The position numbers and the translations under genes are program-made. Source: Bacteroidales bacterium (lineage in GTDB: Bacteria; Bacteroidota; Bacteroidia; Bacteroidales; JAADGE01). Taken from it: a stretch of 64,000 bases of DNA. The stretch covers positions 7,692 to 71,691 of the forward strand of contig JAIORQ010000097.1 of assembly GCA_021108035.1 (NCBI GenBank). The letters are read 5' to 3'. The notes below the pieces were generated by a model. It ran no database searches and was not told the DNA's origin. It saw only the letters and a list, made by a program, of their open reading frames with translations. Below are positions 4,246 through 55,769 of the stretch, piece after piece; position 1 is the stretch's first letter; each line of letters begins with the position of its first letter.

Positions 4246-4256
4246 TATTATTAACA

Positions 4257-4688: not shown

Positions 4689-4696
4689 AATATTAA

Positions 4697-4726: not shown

Positions 4727-4784
4727 TTAAAATATCAACATATAACAATAATACAATTTCGTTAATTATTTAAATAAAAAAATG

Positions 4785-13046: not shown

Positions 13047-13183
13047 TAAAAAAAATATTCTACAAAATTATTAAAATTTCTTTACAAAAATATACTTGTA
13101 TTTTACATCAAGTAAATCATACACGGAATTGTTAAAAACTAAATAAATAAAGGGTTCAAGACAGCATGATATTTGCAGTTTAC

Positions 13184-21975: not shown

Positions 21976-24900
21976 TAGTATTCCTTTTGCTCACGAATAA
22001 TTTTAAAAATTCGCTCTGTTTCTTCTATATCATTCAATATTTTATAGACAGCTGATTTAATTTCTTGTTCTTTGGGTTTATTTCCTCTCCAACCGTCTCT
22101 TTTTGAAACTTTAACAGCTGCATCAATTTGTATTGCAAGATTTGTATCTTTATTTAAGTTATTATACAGAGCTTTTTGTGCAAAATTTTTGATGATACTC
22201 GGAGTATCATCTGTTTGTCCTTTATTTACTGACTTAACAATCTCTTCTATTTTTTTAAGATATTCTTCATAGCTTACTGCATTTGCTTTTCGTTCTTTAA
22301 TAACTTCCCCCAGTAGTTTTGACATATTCTCAAAGAAAGCCGGGTCAATAAGATGTTCTTTAATAATTTTTCTTCTTACATTATTCTCAATAGTTTCTGC
22401 AACTGCACTTTTATTTGATTTAATTCCGGGTGTCAATCCTTCAATAAAATTATTAATTCCGGTTTTTTCTATTATTTCTAATAAAGATACATCATCAAAA
22501 TGAGATATTTTTTGCGTTTCTTCGGCTTTAATATATGTATCAATTAAATGACGCATATCTGCTTCATAAGTTTTTAAATTTGTTGTTTCTCCGCTTGCAT
22601 TCCGAATTTCTGCTCTTAAATTCAAATAGAAATCAATATCCTTTTTAATATTTCCGATTTCATGCGGACTGTAAATTTCTTCAATTTCATCAGCTATATT
22701 AGCATAGGCACGAATTAAGGAAACAGTTTTTTTATACAATGCTGTTCTTTGTGTTTCTCTCGCTTTTAATTCTTCCGGAATTTCCGTATTTCCGCAGAAA
22801 TAACGAATATATGCCAATGTATCTTTCGGCGGTTCTACCTTCTCACAAAGCAAAGATATTTCTTCAAGTGCATTATCAAGTCTTGCTTTTCCGGCTTCTA
22901 AACGGTCTTTCAGTAATATATCAATATCTTGTTTCTCAAAATTATCATAATCTAAATCCGAAGTATAAACTGCAATTGCATTTTCTACACTTGAAAATAA
23001 ATCCATATAATCTACGATGTAACCGTATTCTTTATCATCTCCGTCAAGGCGGTTTACTCGACAAATTGCCTGAAACAAACCGTGATCTTGCATTTTTTTA
23101 TCAATGTATAGATAGGTACAACTCGGGGCATCAAAACCTGTAAGAAGTTTGGCAACTACAATCAACAATTTCATATTTGCCGGTTCTTTTGTAAACTTTT
23201 GCTTTGCCCAATCTTCGTATGTTTCTGATTTAGATTTACCGGGATGTGCTTTTACATCTTTTAAAATATCTTCATATAAATTATAGATAAATTCTTTTTG
23301 AGTTTCAGTATTTGCTCCTGTATCCTCCTTTGTAATATCTTTACTTGCCGGGTTATAAGATGTTACTATTGCACATCGGTTTTTAAATTCCGTATTTTGA
23401 AATCTGTCATAAAAAACAGATGCTTCATAAATTGATTTTGCTATCAAAATTGCATTCCCTTTTTCAGAACTTATTCTTGGTTTTGTGCCGAAATCAAAAA
23501 TAATATCACTAATAATCCTATCTATACGAGAACGACTGCTTAATACCTTTTGCATAGTCCCCCACTTCTTTTTAAGTACGGATTTTTGATAATCATTTAA
23601 GCCTTTGGTTTTAGCATCAAACCATTGGTCTATTTTAAAGTCTGACCTTAATTTTTGGTCAATATCTCTTGCTTCATACAGTAAGTCCAAAATTACATCG
23701 TCTTCAACTCCTTCATTAAATTTATAGGTATGAATATATTTTCCGAAAACTTCTAAACTGGTTTGTTTGTCTTGTTTTAATAAAGGTGTTCCCGTGAAAC
23801 CGATAAAAACAGCATTGGGAAGCATCGCTTTCATTGTTTGGTGTAATTTACCGCTTTGAGTTCTGTGGCACTCATCTACAAAAATAAAAAGGTCACCGAC
23901 TGCTTTTGACGGCTGACTTTTTAACTCACTTATAAATTTGCTGAAATTTGTAACATCTCTTTTTCCGAATTTGTGAACCAAAGAACAAATTAACCTTGGA
24001 GTTGTTTGCTCCAATTTTCGCATTAAATCTCTTCCGCTGTTTGTTCGATATATTTTTTCATCGGCATCTTTAAATACGCCTTCAATTTGTTTATCTAACT
24101 CATCACGGTCGGTTATTACGGCAACTCTTGCATTGGGATTATTCTCTAAAATCCATTTTGCAAGCATTACCATTACAATACTTTTTCCGCTGCCTTGTGT
24201 ATGCCAAATAATACCGCCCTCGTAACGATTAACATATTTTTGAGCTTCTTTTAAACCAAAATATTGATGTACTCTCGGAAGTTTCTTTACTCCTGCATCA
24301 AAAAGAACAAAATCAAAAATAATTTCAAGAAAACGTTCTTTATCACACATTTTCAAAATATATTTATCCGATAACAAACGACTTGTATCTTCAACATTTT
24401 CTTTCCATTTTAAAAAATACTTTTCGGGTGTTTTTATTGTACCATAACGCACACCTTCGGAATCATTTGCTGCAAAAATATATTGTATGGCGGCAAAAAA
24501 CGGCTGAATATAATCTTCTCTTTGGTTTGTAATACTTTGGCGAATACCTTCTCCTATGTCATTAATGCTTCTTTTTAATTCCAAAACAGCAAGTGCAATT
24601 CCGTTTACATATAAAACAATATCGGGTCTTTTTGTGTTTTCGCCTTTAATGGTAACTTCTTCTGCAATTGCAAAATCATTATCTTTAAAGTTTTTCCAAT
24701 CAATAAGATGAACAGTTTCGGTGTTTTTGCCTGCTTCGGGTTTTACTTTTACGCCGTAACGCAACAATTGATATACATTTTTATTTGTTGTGTAAAGATT
24801 GTCATTAAAGTTTATTGCCGTAGTTTTAAAATCGTAAATTGCTTTATTGATAAGCTGTTGTGAATATCCTTTTCTTTGGAGAAATGCCGACAATAATTCT

Positions 24901-25025
24901 TCCTCAATATTGCTGTTATTTTCTCTGTCTTGCCAATCACCAAGATATTTGTAGCCTAACTCATCTTGAAATAACTTTACAATTCGATTTTGGGTTTTGC
25001 GTTCTACTTGACCGGGTTTGTCCAT
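21975..25025 (-). CDS. hsdR: Type I restriction endonuclease subunit R
   Basis: 1016 aa. N-terminal nuclease region. Helicase motif I is HTQGSGKS and motif II is VDECHRTQ. The C-terminal helical domain is typical of HsdR. Confidence 0.9.
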   Translation of the reverse strand: MDKPGQVERKTQNRIVKLFQDELGYKYLGDWQDRENNSNIEEELLSAFLQRKGYSQQLINKAIYDFKTTAINFNDNLYTTNKNVYQLLRYGVKVKPEAGKNTETVHLIDWKNFKDNDFAIAEEVTIKGENTKRPDIVLYVNGIALAVLELKRSINDIGEGIRQSITNQREDYIQPFFAAIQYIFAANDSEGVRYGTIKTPEKYFLKWKENVEDTSRLLSDKYILKMCDKERFLEIIFDFVLFDAGVKKLPRVHQYFGLKEAQKYVNRYEGGIIWHTQGSGKSIVMVMLAKWILENNPNARVAVITDRDELDKQIEGVFKDADEKIYRTNSGRDLMRKLEQTTPRLICSLVHKFGKRDVTNFSKFISELKSQPSKAVGDLFIFVDECHRTQSGKLHQTMKAMLPNAVFIGFTGTPLLKQDKQTSLEVFGKYIHTYKFNEGVEDDVILDLLYEARDIDQKLRSDFKIDQWFDAKTKGLNDYQKSVLKKKWGTMQKVLSSRSRIDRIISDIIFDFGTKPRISSEKGNAILIAKSIYEASVFYDRFQNTEFKNRCAIVTSYNPASKDITKEDTGANTETQKEFIYNLYEDILKDVKAHPGKSKSETYEDWAKQKFTKEPANMKLLIVVAKLLTGFDAPSCTYLYIDKKMQDHGLFQAICRVNRLDGDDKEYGYIVDYMDLFSSVENAIAVYTSDLDYDNFEKQDIDILLKDRLEAGKARLDNALEEISLLCEKVEPPKDTLAYIRYFCGNTEIPEELKARETQRTALYKKTVSLIRAYANIADEIEEIYSPHEIGNIKKDIDFYLNLRAEIRNASGETTNLKTYEADMRHLIDTYIKAEETQKISHFDDVSLLEIIEKTGINNFIEGLTPGIKSNKSAVAETIENNVRRKIIKEHLIDPAFFENMSKLLGEVIKERKANAVSYEEYLKKIEEIVKSVNKGQTDDTPSIIKNFAQKALYNNLNKDTNLAIQIDAAVKVSKRDGWRGNKPKEQEIKSAVYKILNDIEETERIFKIIREQKEY

Positions 25026-25115: not shown

Positions 25116-26129
25116 TTATTGTTTCGGAAACAGTTTTTTTATTTCCTTATCAAAATCACTTTCAAATAAACTGTCTTGAATTATTCTGTATTTTTCAAAT
25201 TCTGTTTCTGCTTTTTCTTTTGCTATTTGGGCTGATATTTTTCCTGCATCTTGTAGTATTGCTCTGTCGTCATATTCTAAAAATAAGTCAAGTCTTTTTG
25301 CCCAATCTTGCATAGTCATAGGAATTTTACGCTTTGCACGTCCTTCGGCTAAATCCAAATAGGCATTAACAATACGTCCGAGAGCTTCAATTTCGTCTTT
25401 TATAAGATAGTTTTTAGCAATTGATACATCTGTTTTTATTATTTTACCGTCGGGGGAGTTTTTCCAAGATGTTAATCCCATTTTTTCTTTTGTGCTGTCA
25501 GCTCTTTTATGAATCAGTCCGGCTGCTGTGTGTCCGTGTATGCCGAAATGGAGTTTGTTTTGCACTTTTGCAAAAAACTCCTTTGTGGTAACAGCATCTT
25601 TATTGTAATCTAAACTTGTAGCATAAATATCGGTTACTTTTTGATAAAATTTACGTTCACTTAATCTAATTTCTCTTATTTCGGAAAGTAATTCTTCAAA
25701 GTAATTTTCGTTTAAAAAAGTTCCGTTTTCAAGTCGTTTTTTATCAATTACAAAGCCTTTAATTGCAAAATTACTCAAAACCTTTGTTGCCCATTGCCTG
25801 AATTGTGTTGCACGCAACGAATTTACACGATAACCTACCGAAATAATTGCATCAAGATTATAAAAATTTGTATTATAATTTTTGCCGTCATCGGCAGTTA
25901 TTCGAAATTTTCGAATAACTGAATTATCATCAGCTTCACCACTTTTAAAAATTTCTTTAAGATGATAATTTACTGTATTAGTGCCTACCTCAAAAAGTTC
26001 TCCCATAAGTTTTTGAGTGAGCCAAATTGTTTCATCTTCGTAGCGGGCTTCTATACTGTTTTTCCCGTCTTGCGAAGTAAATATTAAAAACTCTGCCGTG
26101 CTGTTTCTTATTTGTTTATTTTTTTTCAT
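25116..26129 (-). CDS. rhuM: RhuM-family protein
   Basis: N-terminus NSTAEFLIFTSQDGKNSIEARYEDETIWLTQKLMGELF and ISVGYRVNS...ATQFRQWAT are typical of RhuM. Overlaps the hsdS stop by 4 nt. Confidence 0.8.
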   Translation of the reverse strand: MKKNKQIRNSTAEFLIFTSQDGKNSIEARYEDETIWLTQKLMGELFEVGTNTVNYHLKEIFKSGEADDNSVIRKFRITADDGKNYNTNFYNLDAIISVGYRVNSLRATQFRQWATKVLSNFAIKGFVIDKKRLENGTFLNENYFEELLSEIREIRLSERKFYQKVTDIYATSLDYNKDAVTTKEFFAKVQNKLHFGIHGHTAAGLIHKRADSTKEKMGLTSWKNSPDGKIIKTDVSIAKNYLIKDEIEALGRIVNAYLDLAEGRAKRKIPMTMQDWAKRLDLFLEYDDRAILQDAGKISAQIAKEKAETEFEKYRIIQDSLFESDFDKEIKKLFPKQ

Positions 26130-27376
26130 AGCAAACGTATTTTCCCCGTTAATAACACCTGCATCATTCCCTGTTTTATTTGCCGGTATTTTGTTGTTTT
26201 CTTTTCTAATGCTTCTATTTCTAAATCCATATCGGAAAGGATTTGAGCGATAAGGGTTTGTTCGTTTAATGTAGGTAAGGGGATTTTCAATTGAGCATAT
26301 TCATTTCCATTAATTCCTGGTTGTCCACTTCTCATTGACATTATTTTCACCCAATTCCAATATTTTGTAGATTGTGTAAAATACTTTAAATATTTTGAAT
26401 TTAATTTTTTAGGATTTGGGCTTACTTTAATAAGGAAACCTGCATAAACTAACAATCCATCATTTTTATTGTATAGATAGGTTTTGCCAACACTTGCACC
26501 AGTTCTTGCAAAAACAATTTCGTTTTCTTTTAAATAGAAATCATTACTATTAGTTGCATCAACAGATGCTTTATTTTCATAAATAAAATTTCCATCTTCA
26601 GAAATATCTGTAATTCTTAAATATGTTGGTAAATTTAAATTGTATGACACAGCAGCGGCATTTATTCCGTAAGTTGGTCTATCAAACAAACAATTACCCA
26701 AAGTCCTAAGCTCCCAACCCTCTTTCGGAGTAAGCAATTTTTGCATTGCTCCTTGTTTTATTTTGCGTTTTTTGGCAATTAGTTTTTCAAGGGCTTGTAT
26801 TAATTTATCGGTATCGGACAGGACTTGGGCTATGGCTTTTTGTTCTGGGAGTGGTGGGAGGGGGATTTGGATATTTGCTAATTGTGAAGCACTAATATGA
26901 ACAACAGCATCTCCTTGTCCTTTGCTCGCCTTTTGTTTTTGAACAGTTTTATCATTTAATAAAAATCCTAAAAAAAGTGAATTTACTTTATTTGGTGATA
27001 ATATTACAATATCTCCACCAGCATATGCTTCTACATCTTTTGTATATGCAATACTTTTTCCAATCTCTGATTTTGTTTCACCTGAACCAGCAAACAATAT
27101 ATCTCCAATTTTAAGTTTTTTTGAAGTTAGAGCCACTTCATCTGATATGTAAGAATAAAATTCTTTGATATAATCGTAATGTTTTGTGTATATTTCTCCA
27201 TATCTGACACAAGGTATATAACCACTATTTGATTGGTCTTTTCTTATTCCTTGCCCTTTTGTAAAATTCCCAATACTTCCTAAATTTTTCACCTCCCAAT
27301 CCTCCGGAATAATTCCGATTTCAGTTTGTTTATATCCCTTTAATAAGTTTAGGGTATCAGTTTTTTTTACTTCCAT
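26126..27376 (-). CDS. hsdS: Type I R-M specificity subunit S (two target-recognition domains)
   Basis: Two TRDs are separated by conserved helices: LPPLPEQKAIAQVLSDTDKLIQALEKLIAKKRKIKQGAMQKLLT and LPTLNEQTLIAQILSDMDLEIEALEKK...KQGMMQVLLTGKIRL. Confidence 0.9.
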   Translation of the reverse strand: MEVKKTDTLNLLKGYKQTEIGIIPEDWEVKNLGSIGNFTKGQGIRKDQSNSGYIPCVRYGEIYTKHYDYIKEFYSYISDEVALTSKKLKIGDILFAGSGETKSEIGKSIAYTKDVEAYAGGDIVILSPNKVNSLFLGFLLNDKTVQKQKASKGQGDAVVHISASQLANIQIPLPPLPEQKAIAQVLSDTDKLIQALEKLIAKKRKIKQGAMQKLLTPKEGWELRTLGNCLFDRPTYGINAAAVSYNLNLPTYLRITDISEDGNFIYENKASVDATNSNDFYLKENEIVFARTGASVGKTYLYNKNDGLLVYAGFLIKVSPNPKKLNSKYLKYFTQSTKYWNWVKIMSMRSGQPGINGNEYAQLKIPLPTLNEQTLIAQILSDMDLEIEALEKKTTKYRQIKQGMMQVLLTGKIRLL

Positions 27377-28386
27377 GTCGTTTTGTTAATTTTCTTCTGC
27401 AATTCAGTTAAATTTTTTATTAAATTATCAAAAGACAGGGTTTTACCGTAAATCATGTTTTCTTGCATTTCTTTATAATCATCTTCCCAAAGATGTAATA
27501 CATTATCGGGAGGTATAAATTTTATATTATCCGGTTTTTGCTTTGTGTAATCAACACCCGAAACACGAGCAAATTTACTGCGATGTGCTACGATGGTATT
27601 ATACAAAACAGAATTATTTAATGCCGTTTCTGCAAAGTTTGTATGCATTAATTTTTCAATATCGTACAAATGACGGCTTAAACGTTCTACACGCATTTTT
27701 TCTTTCGGTCGTTGAAATTCTTCGTGTAAAAGGAATATTTTTTCTAAAAAAGTGCGTTCGGGATTTACGGTCGGTACAGTAATCGGTTTATCGGCAAACT
27801 TTCGGTCGGCAAAATATTCTGCCGTAAAAGTTTTAAATGTTTTTGCAGTATATGGTTCTTTCAAAGAACGGCTTCCTACTTCTAATAACACACCGGGTTT
27901 TAAATATGTTTCCGTTTCTGTTAATTTAGGATAATAAATTTCTATTATTACAGGGTCTTGGTCATGGTTTTTTACTTTTCGGTATTTAATATTAACATCT
28001 GAAAAACCGGCATCCGAAAATTTGTTTTTAAGTTCTTCAATAAATGTTGTTGTCATATATTCAAAAGATGTTCTTCTTAATCTCCGAATGTCTCCTTTGC
28101 TTAATTCACCTTTAAAACCGAGATATTCTCTGTTTAGAGCTAAATCAATATCTTCCGAAAAGCGTTCTATTAAATTCCATGCTTTGCTTAAAGATGTTCC
28201 GCCTTTAAAAACTAATTCGGAAGCACATTTCATTGAAAAGACAATTGCCAAAGTATTTACTACCCACCAATCTTTTTCAACAGCTGTAACAGGCAAGCCC
28301 ACTTTTTTGCCTGTTTCAACATAGATGTTACGTTTTGTATCATCAGGCAATTGTAACCACTCTTTTAAATGTTCCGGTTTATTCAT
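27367..28386 (-). CDS. abiEii: AbiEii/AbiGii-family nucleotidyltransferase toxin (type IV TA)
   Basis: FKGGTSLSKAWNLIERFSEDIDL motif. 339 aa. Overlaps abiEi by 8 nt and hsdS by 10 nt. Confidence 0.85.
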   Translation of the reverse strand: MNKPEHLKEWLQLPDDTKRNIYVETGKKVGLPVTAVEKDWWVVNTLAIVFSMKCASELVFKGGTSLSKAWNLIERFSEDIDLALNREYLGFKGELSKGDIRRLRRTSFEYMTTTFIEELKNKFSDAGFSDVNIKYRKVKNHDQDPVIIEIYYPKLTETETYLKPGVLLEVGSRSLKEPYTAKTFKTFTAEYFADRKFADKPITVPTVNPERTFLEKIFLLHEEFQRPKEKMRVERLSRHLYDIEKLMHTNFAETALNNSVLYNTIVAHRSKFARVSGVDYTKQKPDNIKFIPPDNVLHLWEDDYKEMQENMIYGKTLSFDNLIKNLTELQKKINKTTWK

Positions 28387-28984
28387 TTGATTTATCTGTA
28401 TTAAGCAGTTTCCTTATCCAATGCGGAGCTATATTCAAATCATGTTGTAAATGATACGGTTTTTCATTTTTCAGCAAGCCTCTTATCTTTTTCAATTCTT
28501 CGTCTGTAACATTATTTTTACCTATATTACGTAAAGCCTGAACTGCCAATTTGCTGATATTACCGATGTATGCAAGATTTTTTGCACTTGCTTTTTTAAA
28601 GGTTATGATTTGATTGTCTATTTTTATTTTACGTGCAGAAGCATCTGTATAATACACAATATTCATAGGCACTTGCGTTGTAAGTCCCAATTTATACATT
28701 GCATAACTTCCGGTAGGAATAATACGAGCTTTGTCTCTTTTTGCAATCGCAAGAGCAATCTCATCAATACCGGGCAATACAATTCCGATATATTTATCTA
28801 TTTTCGGTCTTGCATACATCCCTCTTGCTACTCTGTATATCTCTTTCGATTTAACCAGTCGTTCCAATGCCTTACTAACGGCTTTTGTATCACCTGTTGA
28901 TGCAAAACTGTCTGTAAAAAACAGCGTGCCCCTCTTGGCTTTTTTAATTTTATTAAACACCTTTATTTCAACACTATCACTCAT
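28379..28984 (-). CDS. abiEi: AbiEi-family antitoxin/transcriptional regulator
   Basis: MSDSVEIKVF...RGTLFFTDSF...AVSKALERLVKSKEIYRVARGMYARPK is typical of the AbiEi/DUF6088 N-terminal wHTH. The start was chosen at the internal Met; the ORF track extends to 29017. Confidence 0.75.
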   Translation of the reverse strand: MSDSVEIKVFNKIKKAKRGTLFFTDSFASTGDTKAVSKALERLVKSKEIYRVARGMYARPKIDKYIGIVLPGIDEIALAIAKRDKARIIPTGSYAMYKLGLTTQVPMNIVYYTDASARKIKIDNQIITFKKASAKNLAYIGNISKLAVQALRNIGKNNVTDEELKKIRGLLKNEKPYHLQHDLNIAPHWIRKLLNTDKSNE

Positions 28985-29038
28985 ATAAATACTATATATT
29001 TGTCGCAAATATAGCAAATATATGCGACATAATTTATT

Positions 29039-31480
29039 TTATAAGCCCATTTTCTTTAAATGCTTTTTAACTGTAAGTTCCAATTCCGATACTTCTTTTT
29101 CTATTTCATGCAAGGGTGTATCATATCGTTCCGAAAGTTCTTTTATTCTGTTTGTTAATCTTTGGCTTATATGCTCTATTTCATTTTTAATACTTGCTTC
29201 TGTGCTTTTCATCCATTTATCATCAAGTACCAATGTTTTTACTTCTGCTTCGGATAATTCAGAATATTTTTCATAAAGTTTATCATCCAAATCTTTTTCT
29301 GCATCTTTAATTTTCTTGTTATAATCTGCAAGTTGTTTTGTTAAATCAAGATATTGTTGCAATATCTCTTTTTCATCGGGTTTATTATCTCCGTATGTTA
29401 CTTCCGGTTCCGCAGCTATTGCCAAATTATCATTCTCAACTTTTACAATTTTTAAACGTTTTGTTACTTCATTTTTATTAATCTTTTCTAATTCTACGAA
29501 ACATCCTTCTTCTCCGCTGTGTTCTTCTTCGACTTCGACAAGCTCAGTCGCCACTTGTTCTTTTTCCGTTTCTAAATCAGCAACAGCCTTTTTTTTATCA
29601 GCAAAATATTTATTTATAACTAAATATTTAGGAACAAGGTCGCAAGTCCAACCTTTATCAATTTGCTTTTTGGCTTTATTTTCAGCAATTATGCGATAAG
29701 TTTCAGCTTTCCAACCGTCATACGAAATCAAATAACAATCGTCTTGCATGCTTTCATTCCAATAATTCATTAAATGTTGAAACATATCATATTTATCAAC
29801 TAATGCCATATCGGAATGCTTTTTCAGAATATTTTCTGAAAGTGTTTGAATTAATTCTTTCGGTTTGTTTCCTTTATCAATAATTTTCAAATATTCTGTA
29901 CTTTCATTTTTCCATTTCTTAAAAATTGTGTCATAATCTTTAATGAATGCCTTAAATTCAGGATGCTCAAAAATGACATCTTTTATCATATCCGTTTTGA
30001 CTTTCAATTCAGAATATTTGCTTTTTTTATCGGTTTTAAATAAAGCACTTTTCAAACTCGGAAATTGTTTCCAAAATTTACTTAAAGCATCAATATCTGC
30101 ATTTGGGATACCACCGTTTAAATGAGCATGTATATCCTGTATGTCTTCCGTTTCTTGGCTGTCGATATATCTCGGAATATTTAAGTTGTATTCGTTTTTC
30201 TCAATTTCATTAACTGATACAATTTTGCTGTATCCGGGAATTTCAATTTCATTGTTAAACACATCCGTAATTTTGCGAATATCCTGTTCTCGCAATCGGT
30301 TTTTGTTTCCGTCTTTGGTAAAACTTTTACCGGCATCAATCATAAAAATTCCTTTACGATTGTGAGCGTTTTCTTTATCTAAAACAATTATTGCAGCAGG
30401 AATACCTGTTCCGTAAAACAAATTAGCCGGCAAACCAATAATTCCTTTAATAAAACCTTTAAGTATAAGGTTTTCTCGAATATCAGCCTCTGCATTTCCT
30501 CTGAATAAAACACCGTGAGGTAAAATAACGGTTCCTTTTCCCTTTCGTTTTAATGAACGTACCATGTGGAGCAAATACGCATAATCACCGTTCTTTGAAG
30601 GCGGTATTCCGTAACCCTCAAAACGATTATATGATTTGTCATCGGGCAATTTAAGACCGTTACTCCAACTTTTATCACTGAAAGGCGGATTTGCAACTAT
30701 AAAATCAAAGGTTTTCAAACTTCCTTTTTCCTCAAAAAGCGGTTTTGCAAGTGTATTCCCTTGTTTTATCACGGCAGTCGGATTATTATGCAATATCATA
30801 TTCATACGAGCCAAACCGGCAGTTGTTGCATCTTTCTCTTGTCCGTATAAAGCAACTTTTCCTGTGGCTTCATCACCTACACGTAAAAGCAAAGAGCCCG
30901 AACCGCAAGTAGGGTCATATACAGTAATATTGGTTTCTTCTTTAACTTTATGAATACCGATAATCTTTGCCATTGTTCTGCTTACTTCCGCAGGCGTATA
31001 AAATTGCCCTTTACTTTTACCGCTTTCGGTTGCAAAATGTCGCATCAAATACTCATAAGCATCTCCGAGTATATCATCTCCTTCCGCTTTATTCTTGCTG
31101 AAATCTAATTCAGGTCTCTCAAATATGGCAATAAGATTTGTTAATCTGTCCACCATTTCTTTACCGTCACCTAACTTTGTAGGGTCATTAAAGTTAGGCA
31201 TATCGGACAGCTTATTTACTTCCGCTGTCGGTGCAATTATTTTCTTATTGATTTGGTCGCCTATATCAGTTTTTCCTTTTAGTGCAACCATATCCTTAAA
31301 ACTTGCACCTTCCGGAATTATGATAGGAGCAAATTCTTGTCCTTCCCATTTATCACTGATGTATTTTAAGAACAGCATTACCAATACATAATCTTTGTAT
31401 TGGCCGGCATCCATTCCGCCTCTTAATTCATCGCAACTTGCCCACAAACTGCTGTATAATTCTGATTTTTTTATTGCCAC
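29039..31480 (-). CDS. hsdM: Type I R-M DNA methyltransferase subunit M with long C-terminal coiled-coil extension
   Basis: GTG start. HsdM_N-like N-terminus (SELYSSLWASCDELRGGMD). Motif I DPTCGSGSLL and motif IV NPPF (IVANPPFSDKSW). About 290 additional C-terminal residues are rich in heptad-like K/E sequence. Confidence 0.9.
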   Translation of the reverse strand: MAIKKSELYSSLWASCDELRGGMDAGQYKDYVLVMLFLKYISDKWEGQEFAPIIIPEGASFKDMVALKGKTDIGDQINKKIIAPTAEVNKLSDMPNFNDPTKLGDGKEMVDRLTNLIAIFERPELDFSKNKAEGDDILGDAYEYLMRHFATESGKSKGQFYTPAEVSRTMAKIIGIHKVKEETNITVYDPTCGSGSLLLRVGDEATGKVALYGQEKDATTAGLARMNMILHNNPTAVIKQGNTLAKPLFEEKGSLKTFDFIVANPPFSDKSWSNGLKLPDDKSYNRFEGYGIPPSKNGDYAYLLHMVRSLKRKGKGTVILPHGVLFRGNAEADIRENLILKGFIKGIIGLPANLFYGTGIPAAIIVLDKENAHNRKGIFMIDAGKSFTKDGNKNRLREQDIRKITDVFNNEIEIPGYSKIVSVNEIEKNEYNLNIPRYIDSQETEDIQDIHAHLNGGIPNADIDALSKFWKQFPSLKSALFKTDKKSKYSELKVKTDMIKDVIFEHPEFKAFIKDYDTIFKKWKNESTEYLKIIDKGNKPKELIQTLSENILKKHSDMALVDKYDMFQHLMNYWNESMQDDCYLISYDGWKAETYRIIAENKAKKQIDKGWTCDLVPKYLVINKYFADKKKAVADLETEKEQVATELVEVEEEHSGEEGCFVELEKINKNEVTKRLKIVKVENDNLAIAAEPEVTYGDNKPDEKEILQQYLDLTKQLADYNKKIKDAEKDLDDKLYEKYSELSEAEVKTLVLDDKWMKSTEASIKNEIEHISQRLTNRIKELSERYDTPLHEIEKEVSELELTVKKHLKKMGL

Positions 31481-31806
31481 TGTTTACTTTTTATTTTAAG
31501 ACTTCTAATTTAATAATTATAAATTTAATGAATAAAAAAAGCGTAAAAAAAATTACTTACTCTTGGGTGAATGACGCTACCATACGATGTTTTCGTTTGC
31601 TGCAAATCCAAAATGTGCAAATTCTAATACAAAATATCATAAAAGCATTTTTTTTAAAATATGGAAAACAAAAGTAATACTGCCTTTCAAACAAAACTTG
31701 CAGTAAATAAAGATATTTTTTATAAATTTGTTAGATTCTAATATTAATTTTGATCCTAATGAAAAAACAAATATGACGGTTATAACATAAAAGTTTATTG
31801 GAATAA

Positions 31807-31920
31807 AATCAAGATATATCAATGTCGGAACTTAAAGAACTTCTTGAAAATACTATCGAAGACCGGAAAGGAAACGAACCTCAAATTGATGATAATGTTG
31901 TAATCGGTATAAAATTGTAG
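31807..31920 (+). pseudogene. Remnant of the 3' end of a SpoIIE/PP2C phosphatase paralog
   Basis: The translation ...MSELKELLENTIEDRKGNEPQIDDNVVIGIKL* aligns with the C-terminus of the intact gene at 6008-7567 (KQILENTFNEWKGDYEQADDVLVAGIKI; I count 14 of 28 identical). Weaker frame-shifted similarity (LLDSNINFDPNEKTNM vs LFSDGFYDQFGGESGRKFM) may extend the remnant back to about 31727. Confidence 0.6.
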
Positions 31921-32197
31921 AATAATAATACACTATTTGATTCTACCGTTATTTTATAGAAATTTCTTATTCTAAATATAATTATCTATCTGATTTTAAT
32001 GATAAAATGCGATAATGATAAAATGCTTAAATAAAAAAAACAGACAGCAAAACTAATTATAATTAGTATGTGATTTTATGACTTTTTATTACAGCATTTT
32101 CGCATTTAAGCATTAAATCATTAACTTTGGTGTGTTGAACTAAATAAAAATTACCTTTCCGGGTAAAATAACAGTATAACCAAAAAATTAATAAAAC

Positions 32198-32647
32198 ATG
32201 GAACTTTTTGAACAAATTAATGCTGATATTAAAACAGCAATGAAAGCAAAAGAAGCTGACAAACTCGGTGCTTTGAGAGCAATTAAAGCTCAATTATTAT
32301 TGATTAAGACATCCGGCGGCGGTAAAGAAGAAATACCTGAAGAAGAAAGCATAAAAATGTTGCAAAGAATGATAAAACAAAGAAAAGACTCTGCCGAAAT
32401 ATATAAATCTCAAAACAGAGATGATCTTTTTGAAAAAGAAATGAAAGAAGTTTCTTTTATTATGCCGTACCTGCCCAAGCAAATGAATGAAAACGAATTA
32501 ACAGAAGTTATTAAAGATATTATTAAAAAAGTCGGTGCCGAATCTATGAAAGATATGGGCAAAGTAATGGGTTTAGCATCAAAAGAACTCGCAGGTAAAA
32601 CCGAAGGCAGATTAATTGCCGATAAAGTAAAAGAATTGTTGAAATAA
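32198..32647 (+). CDS. GatB/YqeY domain-containing protein
   Basis: MELFEQINADIKTAMKAKEADKLGALRAIKAQLLL... is typical of the YqeY family. 149 aa. Confidence 0.85.
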   Translation: MELFEQINADIKTAMKAKEADKLGALRAIKAQLLLIKTSGGGKEEIPEEESIKMLQRMIKQRKDSAEIYKSQNRDDLFEKEMKEVSFIMPYLPKQMNENELTEVIKDIIKKVGAESMKDMGKVMGLASKELAGKTEGRLIADKVKELLK

Positions 32648-32649
32648 AA

Positions 32650-33546
32650 TTATGATTTCAGACGATCTGTGTTTTTATATCTTGCATTTTCTGATTTGTA
32701 AAACTTATATAAAAGATAATAAATTACAAATTCATTTTGTCTTGGTTTTACAATAAATATTCTGTTAAGCATCATATGGGATTGGCTTATTATAAATTTA
32801 TTAATAGGAACATCCTGTTTATTTTTTGCATTTAATTCTAATATTGAACTAATAATATCTTTAGTGTTTTCACTTTTTAACAATATTAGATTATAAAGTG
32901 AATTCAAATATTTAAGACCTTTCTTTTTGTCAGATAACAGTGAATTTAGAATTGGCCTCAAACTTCTAAACTTCATGTCTAACTGTTTTTTAAATTGTTT
33001 GTTCATAGAAAATTCATAGTCGAAATTTTTTACCAATTCTTCAAACATCAGAGATTTACTGTTTGAAGAAAGGCCAAAATCGCTGAAAAAATTATCTACA
33101 GCCATTATTGCAAACCTCCATCTTAATTCTTCACTGTCTTTTCCTCTTATTAGATTTGCCGTTTCAGAAACCATAATACTGTCATAATAAAAAAGAGTTT
33201 CCGCTTCTTCAATCGTAATTTTGCCGTATCTTTCAATCTCACGCTTATATGTGTCAATTTGAACCGAGAAAATAATTAAATCCTCAAAATATTCACTCAA
33301 ATATTCTTTCATTAATTTTATTACTTCATAAAATAATTCATTATTTATTTGAAATCTTATTCTTAAATGAAACTGAGGATCATGATATCTGATAAAAAAC
33401 CATTTATTAATAATCCCTTTAGCTGTAAGCTCTTTGGTCATCGGCAGGATTATTTTTATTAATATTTCTTCAGCAATTTTCTTACCGGTGTATATTTTAT
33501 AAAATAACCATTCCTCTCCAATCAAAAAGTTTCTTTTGAGCGTCAT
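32650..33546 (-). CDS. Split LanB, elimination-domain protein (SpaB_C / thiopeptide-type bacteriocin biosynthesis domain)
   Basis: 298 aa. WFFIRYHDPQFHLRIRF matches the hallmark FF-x-RY-x-D...HLRLR motif of LanB C-terminal/TIGR03891 proteins. Begins 6 nt downstream of the glutamylation-domain gene. Confidence 0.8.
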   Translation of the reverse strand: MTLKRNFLIGEEWLFYKIYTGKKIAEEILIKIILPMTKELTAKGIINKWFFIRYHDPQFHLRIRFQINNELFYEVIKLMKEYLSEYFEDLIIFSVQIDTYKREIERYGKITIEEAETLFYYDSIMVSETANLIRGKDSEELRWRFAIMAVDNFFSDFGLSSNSKSLMFEELVKNFDYEFSMNKQFKKQLDMKFRSLRPILNSLLSDKKKGLKYLNSLYNLILLKSENTKDIISSILELNAKNKQDVPINKFIISQSHMMLNRIFIVKPRQNEFVIYYLLYKFYKSENARYKNTDRLKS

Positions 33547-33552
33547 ATCTTT

Positions 33553-35760
33553 CTAACTTTTATTCTTTTTAAAAGCAAAAATGAATTCATTAGCAAAATA
33601 ATCGTCATTTTCCTTAATAAATGCATTCTTCTTATTAAATAACACTTCTGATAAAAAAAAGATTTGTTTTTTCTTAGCAATTGAAAGAAAGGTTTTAATA
33701 CTTGTTATGTTTTCCAAGTTAAGCGTCAACTCATTTTCTCCTTCCTCAAAATTTACCCAAACCGGAATATTTTTTCGATACCTCCATTTTTTTACTTCAG
33801 CAGATAATTTGTTATCATTATCAATTTTGAATATATATTCAATTTCATCTTTAGAAATCCTCCATTTTGCAGGTGAAAATATTATATTCTTATATTTTAC
33901 TCTCGGAAAAAATTTAAAAGCAGTTTCTATTCCTCCCCAATTAAATTTTATACCTCTTTGTAACTCTTGAAATTGTAAATCACAAAGAAATTGATAAACC
34001 GGCAATTTACTGTTTACATAATTATGTGCGTTACTTAATCGCGGTAAAATTTCTTTATTAAGATTTTTTGATTTTAATATTAAACGATTCTCTTTCACTG
34101 ATATCATTAAATCTTTCGGATAAATTATGTGGTTCCCGGTTACAGAAGGTTTTGCAAGATAGGGGATTTCATAATTTCTTAAAACAGGCCTTAATAAAAC
34201 ATTCCCGATACTGATTTTTGGATTATGCACAATTTCAGCTGTAATTTTATTACGATTTGATTTTTCCTCACTATTTAATATTTCATTTATAAAATCAGAT
34301 ATATCTTCGTTTATATAGCCAAATCTTGAAAACAAATTAGTTGCACTTATTCCGCCTGCCTTCTGTAATAATATTTCAATATTATCATTTGCTTTATAAA
34401 TTTGAACTTTAACAGATAATGTTTCCGGAAAATCATCCCATACAGGTTCATCAGTATTATTAATAATTTCTTCATGAGTCAGAACAATTTCATACTCATT
34501 ATTCTTAACGGCATCAATGTACTTTGCTAATAAAAACTGACTAATACCGGTAATTGATATGTTTGATTTCCTTTTTTCTTTCGGGAAATCAATATTATCT
34601 GTTAAAGGAGATGATATCCCGATATTTTCTTTGTCACTTTTATATCCTATGCCAATTTCTTTATCTAATGCAAACAATAACGGAATTTCAGATTCCCCGT
34701 ATCTTTCGTAAAATTCGTTTCTGAACTTAATTAAATTTATCTCATTGCTTCTTTGTGATAATCTGTTTAAAACATTAATACCTTGCATAATACTGCCGGT
34801 AATATTTTTATTTACTGTAAGATTCTCAGCAGGTTTATATAAATCAACATGAAAAATTCCGGTATCATCATAATCAATATTCAAACTCCTTATTTGATTT
34901 TTTAATTTTTCATATTCAGAAATATCAATTGGAACCGGTTTTGAATTAATACTCTTAACAGAATCTGAAATCTCTGTTATTTCTTTTAAAACCGGATTTT
35001 CAATTTTATATTTACTTAATATTTTAATAATTTGAGTTAAATAATCTTCTCCTGTTGCGACCGGTTCCAGTTCAGAAATTAGAATGTCATTTTCAATTAG
35101 TTCATTAATAAACACTTCAGCTTCATAGGCAGTAATTTCATTATCAACAAGTTCTTCTGTTAAATGTTTTATGTCAATACCATTTTCGGCTGTATCTAAT
35201 ATCCGGTCTAAATAATATGTTTTTTTTACTGCTGCAACATGATGATTAATTTTATCTTTATTTTTTATTTGTTCAATATATCTTATTTTATTACCTGCTT
35301 CGTAAATACTTGAATTAGGGTAAAACTTTATTTTCTTTCTAATATCCTGTAAATTACATAACTGATCAGTTAAAGTTTTAAGGAAATCCATATTTAATCG
35401 CAGATATCTTTTATTCTTCTCTATGAGAGGCAGTTTAATAATATTTTCGTCTGATAATTCACCGATTGAAATTCCTGCAAATAATCCAAAAGGTGTTGAT
35501 CTTGTTGATAAGCGACTAATATATTTTAAAATAGATATCTTTAAGCTTTCTAATTCTTTGCTTTTTGAAAAATCATTCAATTTTTGCAGTTTCGAATATA
35601 AATTATATGAAGCAAAGAACAAAGCCTCTTTAATAACTTGATTATTTATAATCGCCGTAAAGGTTTCATCTGAAATAACTTCCTCTTTAAGTATGTCTTT
35701 CAGATAATTAAAAGGCATTAAGGGAGATCGTAATATGAATTTATTAAAAGCCTGATACAT
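33553..35760 (-). CDS. Split LanB, glutamylation-domain protein (lantibiotic dehydratase N-terminal family)
   Basis: 735 aa. N-terminal FILRSPLMPFNYL and LSTRSTPFGLFAGISIG match conserved Lant_dehydr_N features. Confidence 0.8.
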   Translation of the reverse strand: MYQAFNKFILRSPLMPFNYLKDILKEEVISDETFTAIINNQVIKEALFFASYNLYSKLQKLNDFSKSKELESLKISILKYISRLSTRSTPFGLFAGISIGELSDENIIKLPLIEKNKRYLRLNMDFLKTLTDQLCNLQDIRKKIKFYPNSSIYEAGNKIRYIEQIKNKDKINHHVAAVKKTYYLDRILDTAENGIDIKHLTEELVDNEITAYEAEVFINELIENDILISELEPVATGEDYLTQIIKILSKYKIENPVLKEITEISDSVKSINSKPVPIDISEYEKLKNQIRSLNIDYDDTGIFHVDLYKPAENLTVNKNITGSIMQGINVLNRLSQRSNEINLIKFRNEFYERYGESEIPLLFALDKEIGIGYKSDKENIGISSPLTDNIDFPKEKRKSNISITGISQFLLAKYIDAVKNNEYEIVLTHEEIINNTDEPVWDDFPETLSVKVQIYKANDNIEILLQKAGGISATNLFSRFGYINEDISDFINEILNSEEKSNRNKITAEIVHNPKISIGNVLLRPVLRNYEIPYLAKPSVTGNHIIYPKDLMISVKENRLILKSKNLNKEILPRLSNAHNYVNSKLPVYQFLCDLQFQELQRGIKFNWGGIETAFKFFPRVKYKNIIFSPAKWRISKDEIEYIFKIDNDNKLSAEVKKWRYRKNIPVWVNFEEGENELTLNLENITSIKTFLSIAKKKQIFFLSEVLFNKKNAFIKENDDYFANEFIFAFKKNKS

Positions 35761-35788
35761 AACCTTTAGGAGTTGTAAAATATAAAAA

Positions 35789-35834
35789 ATGCTGTTTAAT
35801 TATAATTTTTATTTAAATCATAACCAAACAGCAT
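35789..35834 (-). terminator. Hairpin plus T-run between the precursor and dehydratase genes (candidate read-through attenuator)
   Basis: On the minus strand, ATGCTGTTT...AAACAGCAT forms a 9-bp stem with a 28-nt AT-rich loop, followed by TTTTTTAT. Confidence 0.4.
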
Positions 35835-35891
35835 AAAAAATATCGACAATAAAAATGTAGATATTGTTAAATACAATCAAAATATATTTTC

Positions 35892-36086
35892 CTATGTAAT
35901 TTCTGTTGTATCAGTTGGATCATTTGTTGTATCACTCGGATCAAACACAATTGTATCACTTGGAGCAAGCACAGTATCAATTTCAGTACCATTTCCGCCT
36001 TTAATTGTATCCAACAGCTTATCATTTAGTGTAAAAACTTCTTCTTTATCTAAAAATAGTTTCGATTTTAAACTTTTATTTTTCAT
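35892..36086 (-). CDS. RiPP precursor peptide (GG-type leader; Cys-free Ser/Thr/Asp-rich core)
   Basis: 64 aa. The leader MKNKSLKSKLFLDKEEVFTLNDKLLDTIKGG carries an FNLD-like FTLND box and ends in GG. The core is NGTEIDTVLAPSDTIVFDPSDTTNDPTDTTEIT. Lies immediately upstream of the split LanB on the same strand. Confidence 0.75.
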   Translation of the reverse strand: MKNKSLKSKLFLDKEEVFTLNDKLLDTIKGGNGTEIDTVLAPSDTIVFDPSDTTNDPTDTTEIT

Positions 36087-36145
36087 TTTGGAGAATTTTA
36101 TGTTAATAATAAGACAAAGTTAAAAAAACATTTTAAAATAAAAAA

Positions 36146-38269
36146 TTAATCATCATACCAACTGATCTCTCTTATAAAAGCATCCGTAAATCCGTCTGCA
36201 TGAACTCTTACGAGATATTTTTCTGCATCTGATTTAAATTTATATTTACCGAATGTATAATGATTTAAATTATCTCTGCCGCTTCTTAACTTAACTTTTC
36301 CCCTGAAATCCTTAAAAAATCTGTGATCCTTTGAAATTCTTCTTTTAAATGCACCTAATTGGATAGTATAAACACCTCTTATGTTACCGTCATCAAGTTC
36401 TGTTACATCCGTATTATCAACAACATCATTAAATGCATAATCTGCACCTGTTTTATCAAGAACTGTAATTACAATATCTTCATTTAATTCAGTATAACTT
36501 AAAAGATCAACAAAGATCATATCTTCAGTCATTCCTTCACCTTTTAAATAATCAATAATATTTTGCTTTCTTTCTTTAAAAAGATTATCATCTGAATTTC
36601 CTGAAGATGATATGTTAATAACAAGATCATTATTATTGTTCATAAAGTCTGAAAGAATATTTAAAAATAAATAATTTTCATTATTCAATTTTGCATCATC
36701 ACCTTCATAATCCAAAGAATAAACTTTGTGTACTTTGCCTCTTTCAATTTTATCTAATTTAAACGACCCCAGATTCTTTTCTGAATTATTATCGTATGGT
36801 GCTGAAAACGTAAATGCTTCAAAAAAATGACCGGCAGCTTCTAAAGCAGTAAAATAATTATCTCCTCTGATTATTCTTGTATTAAAATTTCCGTTGTAAT
36901 CTGTATTTGAATTATAAACAAGTTTTTTGTTACTGATACTGTTGATTTTTACTTTATTTTGAACATCATCTTCATTTACTGCATTCCCTTTAACTAAAAG
37001 ATAAAATAAAGAAGAATCGGCATAATCTACCATATAGATATCTCCTCTACCCTTCCCTTCAGGTCTTTTTGACATGAAATATCCTTTCTTTTTATCACTT
37101 GTAACAAAATAAAAAATATCATCTTCCACAGAGTTAACAGGCATTCCCAAATTATGTGCTTTTTCAAATCTGGTAGGGCTACTGCCTTTTGCACTGAAAA
37201 TATCATAGCCTCCTATAGAATTATGTCCTTTTGAACTGAAATACAATGTTCCGTCTTCGTGTATATAAGGACTTTCTTCATCAAATTTTGTATTGATTTT
37301 TCTGCTCAAAGGTTTTGCTTCTGACCATTTTCCGTCACTGCTTTTTTTCATAAAGTATATATCTTTTCCTCCTCTTCCTCCTGGACGATTACTTGAAAAG
37401 TAAATAATACTTCTCTCTTGATTCATTGAAGCATGGGTTTCATTGTATTTTGAATTAATTGCTTTGAATTTTTCAGGTTTAGACCAAGCATTTCCTGTCA
37501 ACCGGCTACTGTATATATTTCCGTTTTTGTATATCAACATAAAAGTACCGTCTTTTGATGCCCAACAATTTGCCTCATTATCAGCAGAATTTATAGGTTT
37601 GGAATACGGATCAGGTTCTTTATCATTTTCATTATTAATATAAATAAAAAAGATATTTTCGTCAAACTCTCCGTCATCTGTTTTTTTATCATTAAAAAAA
37701 GATGTTTTTTCTTTCGATGTATATAAAAAAATGCCTTGATCTTCAATCAAAAACGGTGAATGTTGTGTAAATTCAGTATTTATACCTTCTCCGGGAGAAC
37801 CAATTTTTACTTTCTTCCTTATCTTAAATTCTTCTATAGCAGCTTCACAAGCCCTTATCTCATTTTGTAAAATAACTGTTGACCTGTATTTTTTGTATGC
37901 TTTATTAATTACCAATTCATTATAAATATCAATTGCTTCATCAAACTTATGATTAACATGATATGCTTTACCTAATAAAAATTTTGCATCAATATATTCT
38001 TCACTTTTATTTTTTTGCTGAAGTAAACTAACGGCTTTTTGAAGAGCAGGAATGGCAAGAGACTGTTTTTCAGGTGTTCTGATATAACACTCACCCAAAT
38101 TCATATGATATTCAGCTTTATCAGGATCTTTTTCAATTAATTTCTCATACATTTCTATTGCTGCCGGAAAATCACCTGCCAATAAAAGTTTTTCGGCTTT
38201 TTTTGCACTTTGACCGAAAATGAGTGTCGTAGTAAATATCAAACTGATAATTAGTAGAATCTTTCTCAT
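36146..38269 (-). CDS. TPR / PD40 beta-propeller / SPOR-domain envelope protein
   Basis: Signal peptide and N-terminal TPRs. PD40-like repeats (IIYFSSNRPGGRGGKDIYF, TLYFSSKGHNSIGGYDIF). C-terminal SPOR-like YTIQLGAFKRR... Confidence 0.7.
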   Translation of the reverse strand: MRKILLIISLIFTTTLIFGQSAKKAEKLLLAGDFPAAIEMYEKLIEKDPDKAEYHMNLGECYIRTPEKQSLAIPALQKAVSLLQQKNKSEEYIDAKFLLGKAYHVNHKFDEAIDIYNELVINKAYKKYRSTVILQNEIRACEAAIEEFKIRKKVKIGSPGEGINTEFTQHSPFLIEDQGIFLYTSKEKTSFFNDKKTDDGEFDENIFFIYINNENDKEPDPYSKPINSADNEANCWASKDGTFMLIYKNGNIYSSRLTGNAWSKPEKFKAINSKYNETHASMNQERSIIYFSSNRPGGRGGKDIYFMKKSSDGKWSEAKPLSRKINTKFDEESPYIHEDGTLYFSSKGHNSIGGYDIFSAKGSSPTRFEKAHNLGMPVNSVEDDIFYFVTSDKKKGYFMSKRPEGKGRGDIYMVDYADSSLFYLLVKGNAVNEDDVQNKVKINSISNKKLVYNSNTDYNGNFNTRIIRGDNYFTALEAAGHFFEAFTFSAPYDNNSEKNLGSFKLDKIERGKVHKVYSLDYEGDDAKLNNENYLFLNILSDFMNNNNDLVINISSSGNSDDNLFKERKQNIIDYLKGEGMTEDMIFVDLLSYTELNEDIVITVLDKTGADYAFNDVVDNTDVTELDDGNIRGVYTIQLGAFKRRISKDHRFFKDFRGKVKLRSGRDNLNHYTFGKYKFKSDAEKYLVRVHADGFTDAFIREISWYDD

Positions 38270-55495: not shown

Positions 55496-55769
55496 AATTT
55501 GGTCGATAAATCTTGATCCGACAATTGGAGCAGAAATAAAAAAAACTCGCCCGGCAATTATTGTAAACGATAATGCAATCGGGCTGTTACCTTTAAAAAT
55601 AATTGTTCCCATAACTGATTGGAAAGAACAATTTGCTGTTGCTAAAAAGATAATATTTTCAGTCAATAATCTATGCTGGTTGTTTAATCACCCCCAAAAC
55701 AGCAATAGCATCTTTAATAGATTTTATGTCTTGAAAAGTCATGGTGAGTTTATCTTTACGTTCTTTTAA
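55479..55769 (+). pseudogene. PemK/MazF-family toxin gene, 3'-truncated
   Basis: MKQQNEIWSINLDPTIGAEIKKTRPAIIVNDNAIGLLPLKIIVPITDWKEQFAV matches the N-terminal ~55 aa of MazF/PemK. From about 55650 onward the frame reads antisense through the mfd 3' end with no MazF-like sequence. Confidence 0.6.

Follow-up and report, generated by a model that had tools for sequence, protein, structure and literature searches.

A Cys-free precursor peptide with P-x-D-T repeats encoded beside a split LanB dehydratase in a Bacteroidales genome

Organization of the locus

A 64,000-nucleotide stretch of DNA from a Bacteroidales bacterium (GenBank assembly GCA_021108035.1, contig JAIORQ010000097.1, positions 7,692 to 71,691; hereafter 'the window') carries a short gene for a precursor peptide, followed by two genes that encode the halves of a split LanB dehydratase. 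The peptide had drawn attention in an earlier sequence-only reading through its Cys-free core, which is built from repeats of the form P-[ST]-D-T. The precursor gene, LanB-N and LanB-C are arranged as a predicted three-gene operon with an attenuator-like hairpin after the precursor gene. The features relevant to this arrangement are listed below in the order of transcription.

36115..36122, minus strand: weak promoter candidate TAACTTTG, a TAnnTTTG match 29 nucleotides upstream of the ATG
35892..36086, minus strand: precursor peptide gene, 64 amino acids plus stop; translation MKNKSLKSKLFLDKEEVFTLNDKLLDTIKGG (leader) followed by NGTEIDTVLAPSDTIVFDPSDTTNDPTDTTEIT (core)
35994..36086, minus strand: leader, residues 1-31, with Gly-Gly at its end (35994-35999); matched by NF038153
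35895..35993, minus strand: core, residues 32-64 (33 amino acids), Cys-free, without basic residues, formal charge about -8
35789..35834, minus strand: 20-bp hairpin plus U-tract between the precursor gene and LanB-N; the sole terminator-like match in 32000-36600
33553..35760, minus strand: LanB-N, the glutamylation part (Lant_dehydr_N), 735 amino acids, intact; PF04738 with E = 5e-137, profile positions 2-645 of 649
32650..33546, minus strand: LanB-C, the elimination part (Lant_dehydr_C / TIGR03891), 298 amino acids, intact; PF14028 with E = 7e-62, profile positions 1-255 of 255

Upstream, the operon borders on a gene for a PorE/CHU_0125-like protein (TPR and PD40); on the downstream side, a YqeY gene in convergent orientation adjoins LanB-C. 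The hairpin, which looks like a terminator or attenuator, starts 58 nucleotides past the precursor stop codon and is conserved in the second strain described below. A fold of the segment that includes it (35765-35900) reaches -33 kcal/mol with z = -6.9, and none of 200 shuffled sequences was as stable. The promoter candidate, which fits the -7 consensus of Bacteroidota promoters (TAnnTTTG), is likewise conserved in the second strain. This motif is not enriched in the window (112 occurrences observed, 112 expected), and a match on the right strand has a chance of about 5% in a 60-nucleotide spacer. A scan for sigma-70 promoters was uninformative (31 matches against 30.7 expected).

The leader and its public annotation

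Residues 10-20 of the leader (36027-36059) conform to LxLxKx5L, with L10, L12, K14 and L20 at the defining positions. The NCBIfam model NF038153 (lant_leader_L1a, 'class I lanthipeptide') matches residues 1-31 with 26.8 bits, above its curated cut-off of 22. An LxLxKx5L stretch followed by Gly-Gly is the leader motif of Bacteroidetes class I precursors described by Walker et al. (PMC7268733). The FTLND stretch that the sequence-only reading had likened to an FNLD box is present in the leader, but it belongs to this Bacteroidota motif, and there is no FNLD box. With the leader above the NF038153 cut-off and a split LanB downstream, the open reading frame (ORF) is well accounted for as a genuine precursor of a peptide made on ribosomes and modified after translation (RiPP), as had been proposed. 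Its N-terminus, MKNKSLKSKLFLDKEEVFTLND, lacks a hydrophobic h-region of the Sec type when the translation is read by eye, with no predictor applied.

An identical precursor protein has been deposited as 'class I lanthipeptide' from a Bacteroidales metagenome-assembled genome (MAG), and the same allele occurs in another sample (L091). The annotation 'class I lanthipeptide' is formally wrong, because LanC and core Cys, two defining features of lanthipeptides, are both missing.

Genes sought in the window

The absence of a cyclase and of an exporter was assessed in two ways. Pfam scans covered every ORF of at least 280 amino acids in a list of window ORFs of at least 110 amino acids, and all but about ten of the smaller ones (110-240 amino acids); no LanC, C39-ABC transporter, ATP-grasp enzyme or YcaO was found among the scanned ORFs. 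Custom hidden Markov models (HMMs) for LanC, built from four LanC proteins of neighbouring clades, and for C39-ABC were then run on all window ORFs of at least 30 amino acids. The LanC model gave no match in the window even at E = 1e-2, the C39-ABC model gave none among these ORFs, and HlyD was not found within the 64 kb. Rfam and tRNA scans yielded nothing relevant, and a plasmid megablast with the operon returned no match.

The earlier statement that no ATP-grasp enzyme is present therefore holds for the scanned ORFs (all listed ones of at least 280 amino acids), and the only enzymes of the operon are LanB-N and LanB-C. Like graspetide cores, the core of this precursor has Thr/Ser and Asp/Glu in repeated motifs, and its conserved D and T, when compared with graspetide donors and acceptors, form an adjacent D-T dipeptide. 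Unlike graspetides, its leader and enzymes are of the LanB type. The locus is not a graspetide locus, because no ATP-grasp enzyme was found among the scanned ORFs.

Composition and repeats of the core

A recount of the translated core gives 9 Thr, 2 Ser, 6 Asp and 2 Glu, with no Cys, Lys, Arg or His, in agreement with the composition originally reported (11 Ser/Thr, 6 Asp, 2 Glu). Four D-T dipeptides are present, also as reported, and the motifs PSDT, PSDT and PTDT have their first residues at positions 42, 50 and 57, which gives the described spacing of 8 and 7 residues. The units and the DNA repeats beneath them are as follows, with P0002 denoting the second allele introduced below.

35973..35981, minus strand: first unit, I-D-T, then V; I, D and T are the same in the P0002 allele
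35952..35963, minus strand: P-S-D-T unit, then I; Ser is encoded by AGT here and by TCT in the P0002 allele
35928..35939, minus strand: P-S-D-T unit, then T; from the translation and the allele alignment
35907..35918, minus strand: P-T-D-T unit, then T; P-G-D-T in the P0002 allele
35904..35973: tandem DNA repeats of 21 and 24 nucleotides, underlying the 7- and 8-residue peptide repeat

Shuffling the core with its composition preserved was used to establish the significance of these motifs. P-x-D-T occurs 3 times against 0.15 expected (p ~2e-4), [ST]DT 3 times against 0.5 (p = 0.008), and D-T 4 times against 1.6 (p = 0.03). The repeat is also real at the DNA level, as previously noted: Tandem Repeats Finder reports a period of 21 at 35904-35943 (89% matches) and a period of 24 at 35927-35973 (86% matches), and the four 9-mers cited in the original description are the reverse complements of xGATACx codons. 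The suggestion that the units constitute a repeated modification or recognition module is a reasonable one, in that P-x-D-T is non-random and is exactly what the sole homologue keeps.

Homologous loci and the origin of the operon

Homologous loci were surveyed in 80 genomic regions with HMMs for LanC, LanB-C, C39-ABC and the leader. A genome scan with the single LanB-N protein gave no match, and an alignment query was needed to retrieve these loci. LanC lies within 7 kb in about 64 of the 80, and the cores there are almost always Cys-rich. The nearest LanB-N relatives outside the species of the window (P0004-P0008, 46-51% identity) all have LanC immediately upstream and, where the contig allows, a C39-ABC exporter and an HlyD-like protein downstream; their precursors have 4-7 Cys. 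The contig of the closest LanB-N homologue (L001) begins 50 nucleotides before the gene, with the precursor off the contig, and those 50 nucleotides encode the C-terminus of LanC (...DPAWDEILLLS, then stop). In a neighbour-joining tree, the LanB-N of the window falls within a nine-member clade, and the eight others are all linked to LanC.

These comparisons indicate that the absence of LanC, exporter and Cys is a derived, lineage-specific state rather than a family trait, because the closest relatives have LanC and Cys-rich cores and the other members of the tree clade are LanC-linked. The check on homologous split-LanB precursors that had been proposed earlier thus gave a negative answer: neither the [ST]-D-T periodicity nor the absence of Cys is family-wide.

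A derived state of this kind raises the possibility that the operon is a decaying remnant, in which the cluster became useless once LanC and the exporter were deleted, the core drifts as a relic, and LanB has simply not yet been disrupted. Such an origin would fit the closest relatives, which have the gene order precursor-LanC-LanB-N-LanB-C, mostly with C39-ABC and HlyD, and Cys-rich cores. It would also fit the tiny size of the precursor family and the accelerated LanB-N lineage of the window, in which five highly conserved residues, including D123 (D123N), have changed (see below). We nevertheless regard decay as unlikely, given the comparison of the two alleles set out in the next section.

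Several loci of the survey likewise have a split LanB and no LanC. They come from Chryseobacterium (L071, L075, L085 and L089; precursors with 0-1 Cys) and Aquimarina (L062, L063, L066 and L079; precursors with 0-3 Cys), and they suggest that a cyclase-free split LanB acting on Cys-poor substrates seems to recur in Bacteroidota. Like the window, these loci combine LanB-N and LanB-C with Gly-Gly leaders and Thr/Asp/Pro-rich cores of 0-3 Cys, for example DDPVTIPIVFTTVYLPEPSDNTLVTKPTKTGGTDIILSELP in L075. Their LanB-N proteins are about 35-37% identical to that of the window and belong to other clades, so that the loss of LanC was independent. Unlike the window, they have extra large neighbours (look-alikes, by eye, of an X-Pro/S15-type peptidase, a TPR plus AraC-type regulator and a subtilisin-type S8 peptidase), and some carry an ABC transporter. 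None of their cores has the P-x-D-T tandem repeat.

The Chryseobacterium precursors lie at 2915-3106 (L071), 4194-4621 (L075), 4490-4645 (L085) and 4599-4775 (L089) and have the leader EKKLSLKKLQL...GG. In these clusters the precursor is followed by the peptidase-like protein of about 740 amino acids, LanB-N and LanB-C, and they may represent an undescribed RiPP group. In the Aquimarina loci, short Gly-Gly precursors are found at about 12000-13100 (for example ALLNLDENDSEDDTWGS in L079), and the protein of about 570-590 amino acids after LanB-C is the one that resembles a TPR plus AraC-type regulator, judged from the L062 sequence.

Two further observations concern the survey itself. One LanC-containing locus (L005, 2322-5212) has, upstream of its lanthipeptide genes, a second short Gly-Gly precursor (MKSKIKSLRLTKLSQKQQKIVKGG...) that lies beside a radical SAM enzyme, so that two RiPP systems are adjacent there. 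Typical Bacteroidota-style split-LanB contigs were also found in MAGs assigned to other phyla, namely L007 and L021 (Thiohalospira sp.), L013 (Clostridia) and L080 (Hyphomicrobiales); these assignments probably reflect binning errors and not horizontal transfer.

Comparison with a second allele

The sole precursor relative found, P0002, also has a core without Cys. A word-indexed search of 5.8 billion clusters returned the precursor itself and P0002 and nothing else. When 1.8 billion representatives were searched exhaustively with a HMMER profile, no additional precursor with this core came to light; the other matches were rejected as family members, being unrelated repeat proteins or Cys-containing lanthipeptide precursors. 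A scan of JGI metagenomes with leader patterns gave no match. Two short ENA contigs contain P0002, in a gene order that matches the window (end of the PorE-like gene, precursor, LanB-N); contigs from its two samples add the 3' portion of LanB-N, LanB-C and, on L093, YqeY.

Nucleotide identity between the two strains is 98.4% at the end of the upstream gene, 87% in the leader, 63% in the core (with a 6-nucleotide indel), 97.0% over the first 762 nucleotides of LanB-N, 99.2% over its last 1332, 99.8% in LanB-C and 98.7% in YqeY. The stretch directly 3' of the precursor stop codon is also poorly conserved. Whereas the flanks have a synonymous divergence (dS) of 0.03-0.07, the leader reaches 0.43 and the core 0.74, and thus the precursor alleles are much older than the surrounding DNA. 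The nonsynonymous divergence (dN) of the core is 0.46, and the dN/dS of the leader is 0.2. A pattern of this kind is expected from the import of an allele or from a long-lived polymorphism centred on the core.

Despite this divergence, the frame and the Gly-Gly are preserved in both alleles, Cys is absent from both, and the first I-D-T stays the same, as do all P, D and T residues of the P-x-D-T units. Motif positions are identical at 11 of 11 sites, compared with 5 of 22 other aligned positions (Fisher p ~2e-5). The Pro and Ser codons vary synonymously between units and alleles; at Ser43 the change is from AGT to TCT, and Ser was therefore kept although its codon changed in several steps. In P0002 there are five units (TDT, PIDT, PSDT, PSDT and PGDT). 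It appears that the core diversifies rapidly as a cassette and that, within each unit, P, D and T alone are held constant.

The comparison argues against a neutral relic. Neutral drift cannot give 37% nucleotide divergence in the core beside neighbours that differ by 0.2-3% while the frame and all P, D and T are kept. Neither strain shows damage to any of the three ORFs or to the hairpin. The dN/dS of LanB, at 0.32 in the N-terminal third and 0.10-0.13 in the remainder, is far from the value of about 1 that decay would give, and the strain comparison indicates that LanB is under purifying selection. It had been anticipated at the outset that homologous loci might carry ordinary Cys-containing cores and that this peptide would then be a lineage-specific decayed copy. 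The first part proved true for the homologous loci, but the allele comparison does not support a decayed copy.

The conserved residues could also serve a different enzyme. The general O-glycosylation sequon of Bacteroidota is D-(S/T)-(A/I/L/V/M/T) (PMC8550257), and the D-T-(T/V/I/L) units might be such sequons in an exported, mucin-like acidic glycopeptide, with LanB acting on other Ser/Thr residues or on nothing. All four D-T sites of the window allele fit the sequon (0.96 expected, p = 0.003), as do all five of P0002 (1.08 expected, p = 6e-4). Once D-T is present, however, T, V, I or L is likely to come next in a peptide of this composition (an estimated ~0.5 per site and ~0.004 jointly), so that the fit is only modestly improbable, and the two alleles are not independent. 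The general system acts in the periplasm, whereas the peptide has no hydrophobic Sec-type signal as read by eye, and glycosylation leaves the tight operon linkage to LanB unexplained. Similar PxDT-hydrophobic repeats in two other Bacteroidota proteins that match the core profile (P0132 and P0134) lend the idea some support, but overall we consider it highly improbable.

In P0132 and P0134, which match the core profile at E ~1e-4, Gly-rich spacers alternate with 'FPIDTIIIATDTIISPMGDTLYFPGDTISFP' blocks in the same periodicity as in the RiPP core. Read by eye, their C-termini resemble type IX secretion sorting tails. The blocks may be clustered O-glycosylation sequons or a structural repeat.

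The split LanB dehydratase

LanB-N keeps Y80, R83, R87, T89, D306 and R479. LanB-C is matched by TIGR03891 ('thiopeptide-type') with 203 bits and keeps 46 of the 49 columns of at least 90% conservation, the three changes being conservative; this elimination subunit is thus essentially unaltered at its conserved sites, which again speaks against decay.

The residues at which LanB-N deviates from highly conserved columns are D123N, Q225D, Q304H, R517S and D675E. The D123 column aligns with Asp121 of NisB, and the window has NMD where homologues have DMN. For the NisB D121A variant, PMC4341554 cites Garg et al. for a lack of activity in vitro and reports nearly wild-type behaviour in vivo. We rejected D123N as a decisive sign of inactivation, since NisB D121A is near wild type in vivo and the Asp reappears two residues on.

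An apparent pseudogene in the protein database, a 529-amino-acid 'truncated LanB-N' (P0142), was likewise rejected; its sequence is 100% identical to the window and the truncation is an assembly artefact at a contig end. At 6898-7083 of L091, the end of the contig is an inverted duplicate of the preceding 187 nucleotides (95.7% identity), which creates the false 529-amino-acid protein.

A proposed route to a linear dehydrated peptide

We hypothesize that the locus is a working minimal RiPP operon whose LanB dehydrates Thr/Ser without subsequent cyclization, a reading that we hold with moderate confidence. Because Cys and LanC are absent, the product cannot be a lanthipeptide, and it is likely to be a linear dehydrated peptide. 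By descent, an ordinary Bacteroidota class I lanthipeptide cluster would have lost LanC and its C39-ABC/HlyD exporter, and the core would have lost all Cys. In the proposed pathway, the LxLxKx5L / Gly-Gly leader would dock the peptide on the split LanB, LanB-N would glutamylate the hydroxyls of Thr, and possibly Ser, with Glu-tRNA(Glu), and LanB-C would eliminate glutamate to give dehydrobutyrine (Dhb) or dehydroalanine. No thioether rings would form, and the result would be a linear, strongly acidic peptide in which the repeated P-x-D-T-(T/V/I/L) module would set the positions of several dehydro residues. The leader would then be cut after Gly-Gly and the peptide exported by unlinked functions. 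The sequence comparisons establish which genes are present and that they are intact, the family of the leader, the non-random and evidently selected repeat, the derived loss of LanC and the purifying selection on LanB; in this scheme, we infer the action of LanB on the precursor, the sites dehydrated, the lack of other modification, and processing and export.

Several observations weigh against this proposal. An acidic residue before Ser/Thr is not a favoured context for NisB. Neither a peptidase nor an exporter was found within the 64 kb. There are two alleles in all among about 15 billion proteins, and the evidence for selection rests on a single pairwise comparison. An excess of P-x-D-T in the Cys-containing cores of homologous loci (9 observed, 1.65 expected) counts as a precedent in favour of the proposal, but it stems mostly from one family (CPTDTTNNNC). 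LanB-N differs from its homologues at 5 of 61 highly conserved columns, compared with a homologue median of 2. It has also evolved about 2.5 times faster than its sister (Tajima's relative-rate test, 149 against 59 unique changes, chi-square 39). Relaxed constraint or altered chemistry could explain both the acceleration and the changes in conserved columns.

The rate excess is weaker in LanB-C (43 against 26 unique changes), and GC content is similar in both lineages. Faster evolution of LanB-N after the loss of LanC would fit adaptation to a new substrate, the loss of constraint from contacts with LanC, or partial relaxation.

If the chemistry of LanB-N has changed, the products might include stable Glu esters on Thr, an Asp cross-link, or backbone cleavage at Asp-Dhb that releases several short units. 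The fact that each unit of either allele has Asp strictly adjacent to its conserved Thr would suit such an outcome, as would the acceleration of LanB-N with its D123N, Q304H and R517S changes and a tandem-repeat architecture that resembles multi-core precursors. Against it, the elimination subunit is intact and conserved, so that elimination arguably still occurs, no protease or additional enzyme is present in the operon, and we know of no precedent for the addition of a carboxylate to dehydro residues. We judge altered chemistry to be quite improbable.

A bolder extension of the dehydration hypothesis holds that the P-x-D-T-hydrophobic repeat is the recognition module for a LanB that was itself repurposed after the loss of the cyclase. 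The product would then represent a previously undescribed RiPP type, either a linear, acidic poly-Dhb peptide with reactive Asp-Dhb (leading to cleavage into several small units or to a new Asp-derived link) or a peptide with retained glutamyl esters, and the core would be under diversifying or balancing selection between strains. We put this forward as a rather unlikely scenario.

Relation to known systems

The closest relationship is to Bacteroidota class I lanthipeptide clusters (the pinensin family, NF038153), which share the leader family, the split LanB and, apart from the missing genes, the gene order; the nearest LanB-N relatives of the window, at 44-51% identity, are of this type. The operon would act as the dehydration half of such a class I pathway. 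Unlike these clusters, the window has no LanC, core Cys, C39-ABC or HlyD in 64 kb, and its core is an acidic tandem P-x-D-T repeat without basic residues, for which lanthionine is impossible by definition.

Thiopeptide- and goadsporin-type pathways also use a split LanB (TbtB/TbtC, GodF/GodG), and their dehydro residues are not consumed by a LanC. The window resembles them in its two-protein system for glutamylation and elimination and in the TIGR03891 match of LanB-C. Unlike the thiopeptide type, it has no YcaO, dehydrogenase or [4+2] cyclase, its leader is of the L1a family, and its LanB is nearest to LanC-linked enzymes.

Hypervariable cores behind conserved leaders, some of them Cys-free, are known from the prochlorosin/'cyanotin' Nif11 precursors (PMC7268733). 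The window is similar in that its leader is conserved while its core has strongly diverged between close strains. Unlike these LanM systems, it has a split LanB, a single precursor per locus and a repeat motif that is kept within the variable core. The small LanB proteins of the PEARL/pearlin type lack the elimination domain, whereas the window encodes a full, conserved elimination subunit and so is not a PEARL system. General O-glycoproteins have the sequon in common with the core; unlike them, the precursor lacks a Sec-type signal and its gene stands with that of a cytoplasmic modification enzyme, so that this is a resemblance only.

Lanthipeptide mining anchored on LanC discards precursor candidates without Cys (PMC7268733, methods). 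Loci like that of the window are therefore invisible to such mining, or are mislabelled 'class I lanthipeptide'. No description of LanC-less or Cys-free LanB systems was found in a literature search of limited coverage. Together, the loci of the window, Chryseobacterium and Aquimarina suggest repeated use of split LanB on Cys-free substrates in Bacteroidota. If this is true, Bacteroidota would hold a pool of linear dehydro-peptides. The two natural alleles amount to a mutational scan that points to P, D and T as the positions that matter, and, with three genes, the operon is compact enough to be tested directly in a heterologous host.

Other features of the window

A type I restriction-modification island adjoins the lan operon, with HsdR at 21975-25025, HsdS at 26126-27376 and HsdM at 29039-31480. 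Inserted among the hsd genes are a RhuM-family gene (25116-26129), an AbiEii nucleotidyltransferase toxin (27367-28386) and a DUF6088 protein (28379-29017) that could be an AbiEi-like partner. A YgjP-like metallopeptidase (21262-21975) belongs to the same island. Between HsdM and YqeY, about 700 nucleotides (31481-32197) have no ORF of at least 80 amino acids, no tRNA and no Rfam match, and this gap could be the junction of the defence island.

Pfam scans also identified many type IX secretion system sorting domains among the proteins of the window, which mark the host as a member of the Bacteroidota. Mfd is present as two overlapping ORFs on the minus strand (55671-59008), one of 375 amino acids with the UvrB-interaction domain (57881-59008) and one of 737 amino acids with the domains CarD_TRCF, DEAD, Helicase_C and TRCF (55671-57884). 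A frameshift or a sequencing error could account for this arrangement, or the gene may be genuinely split.

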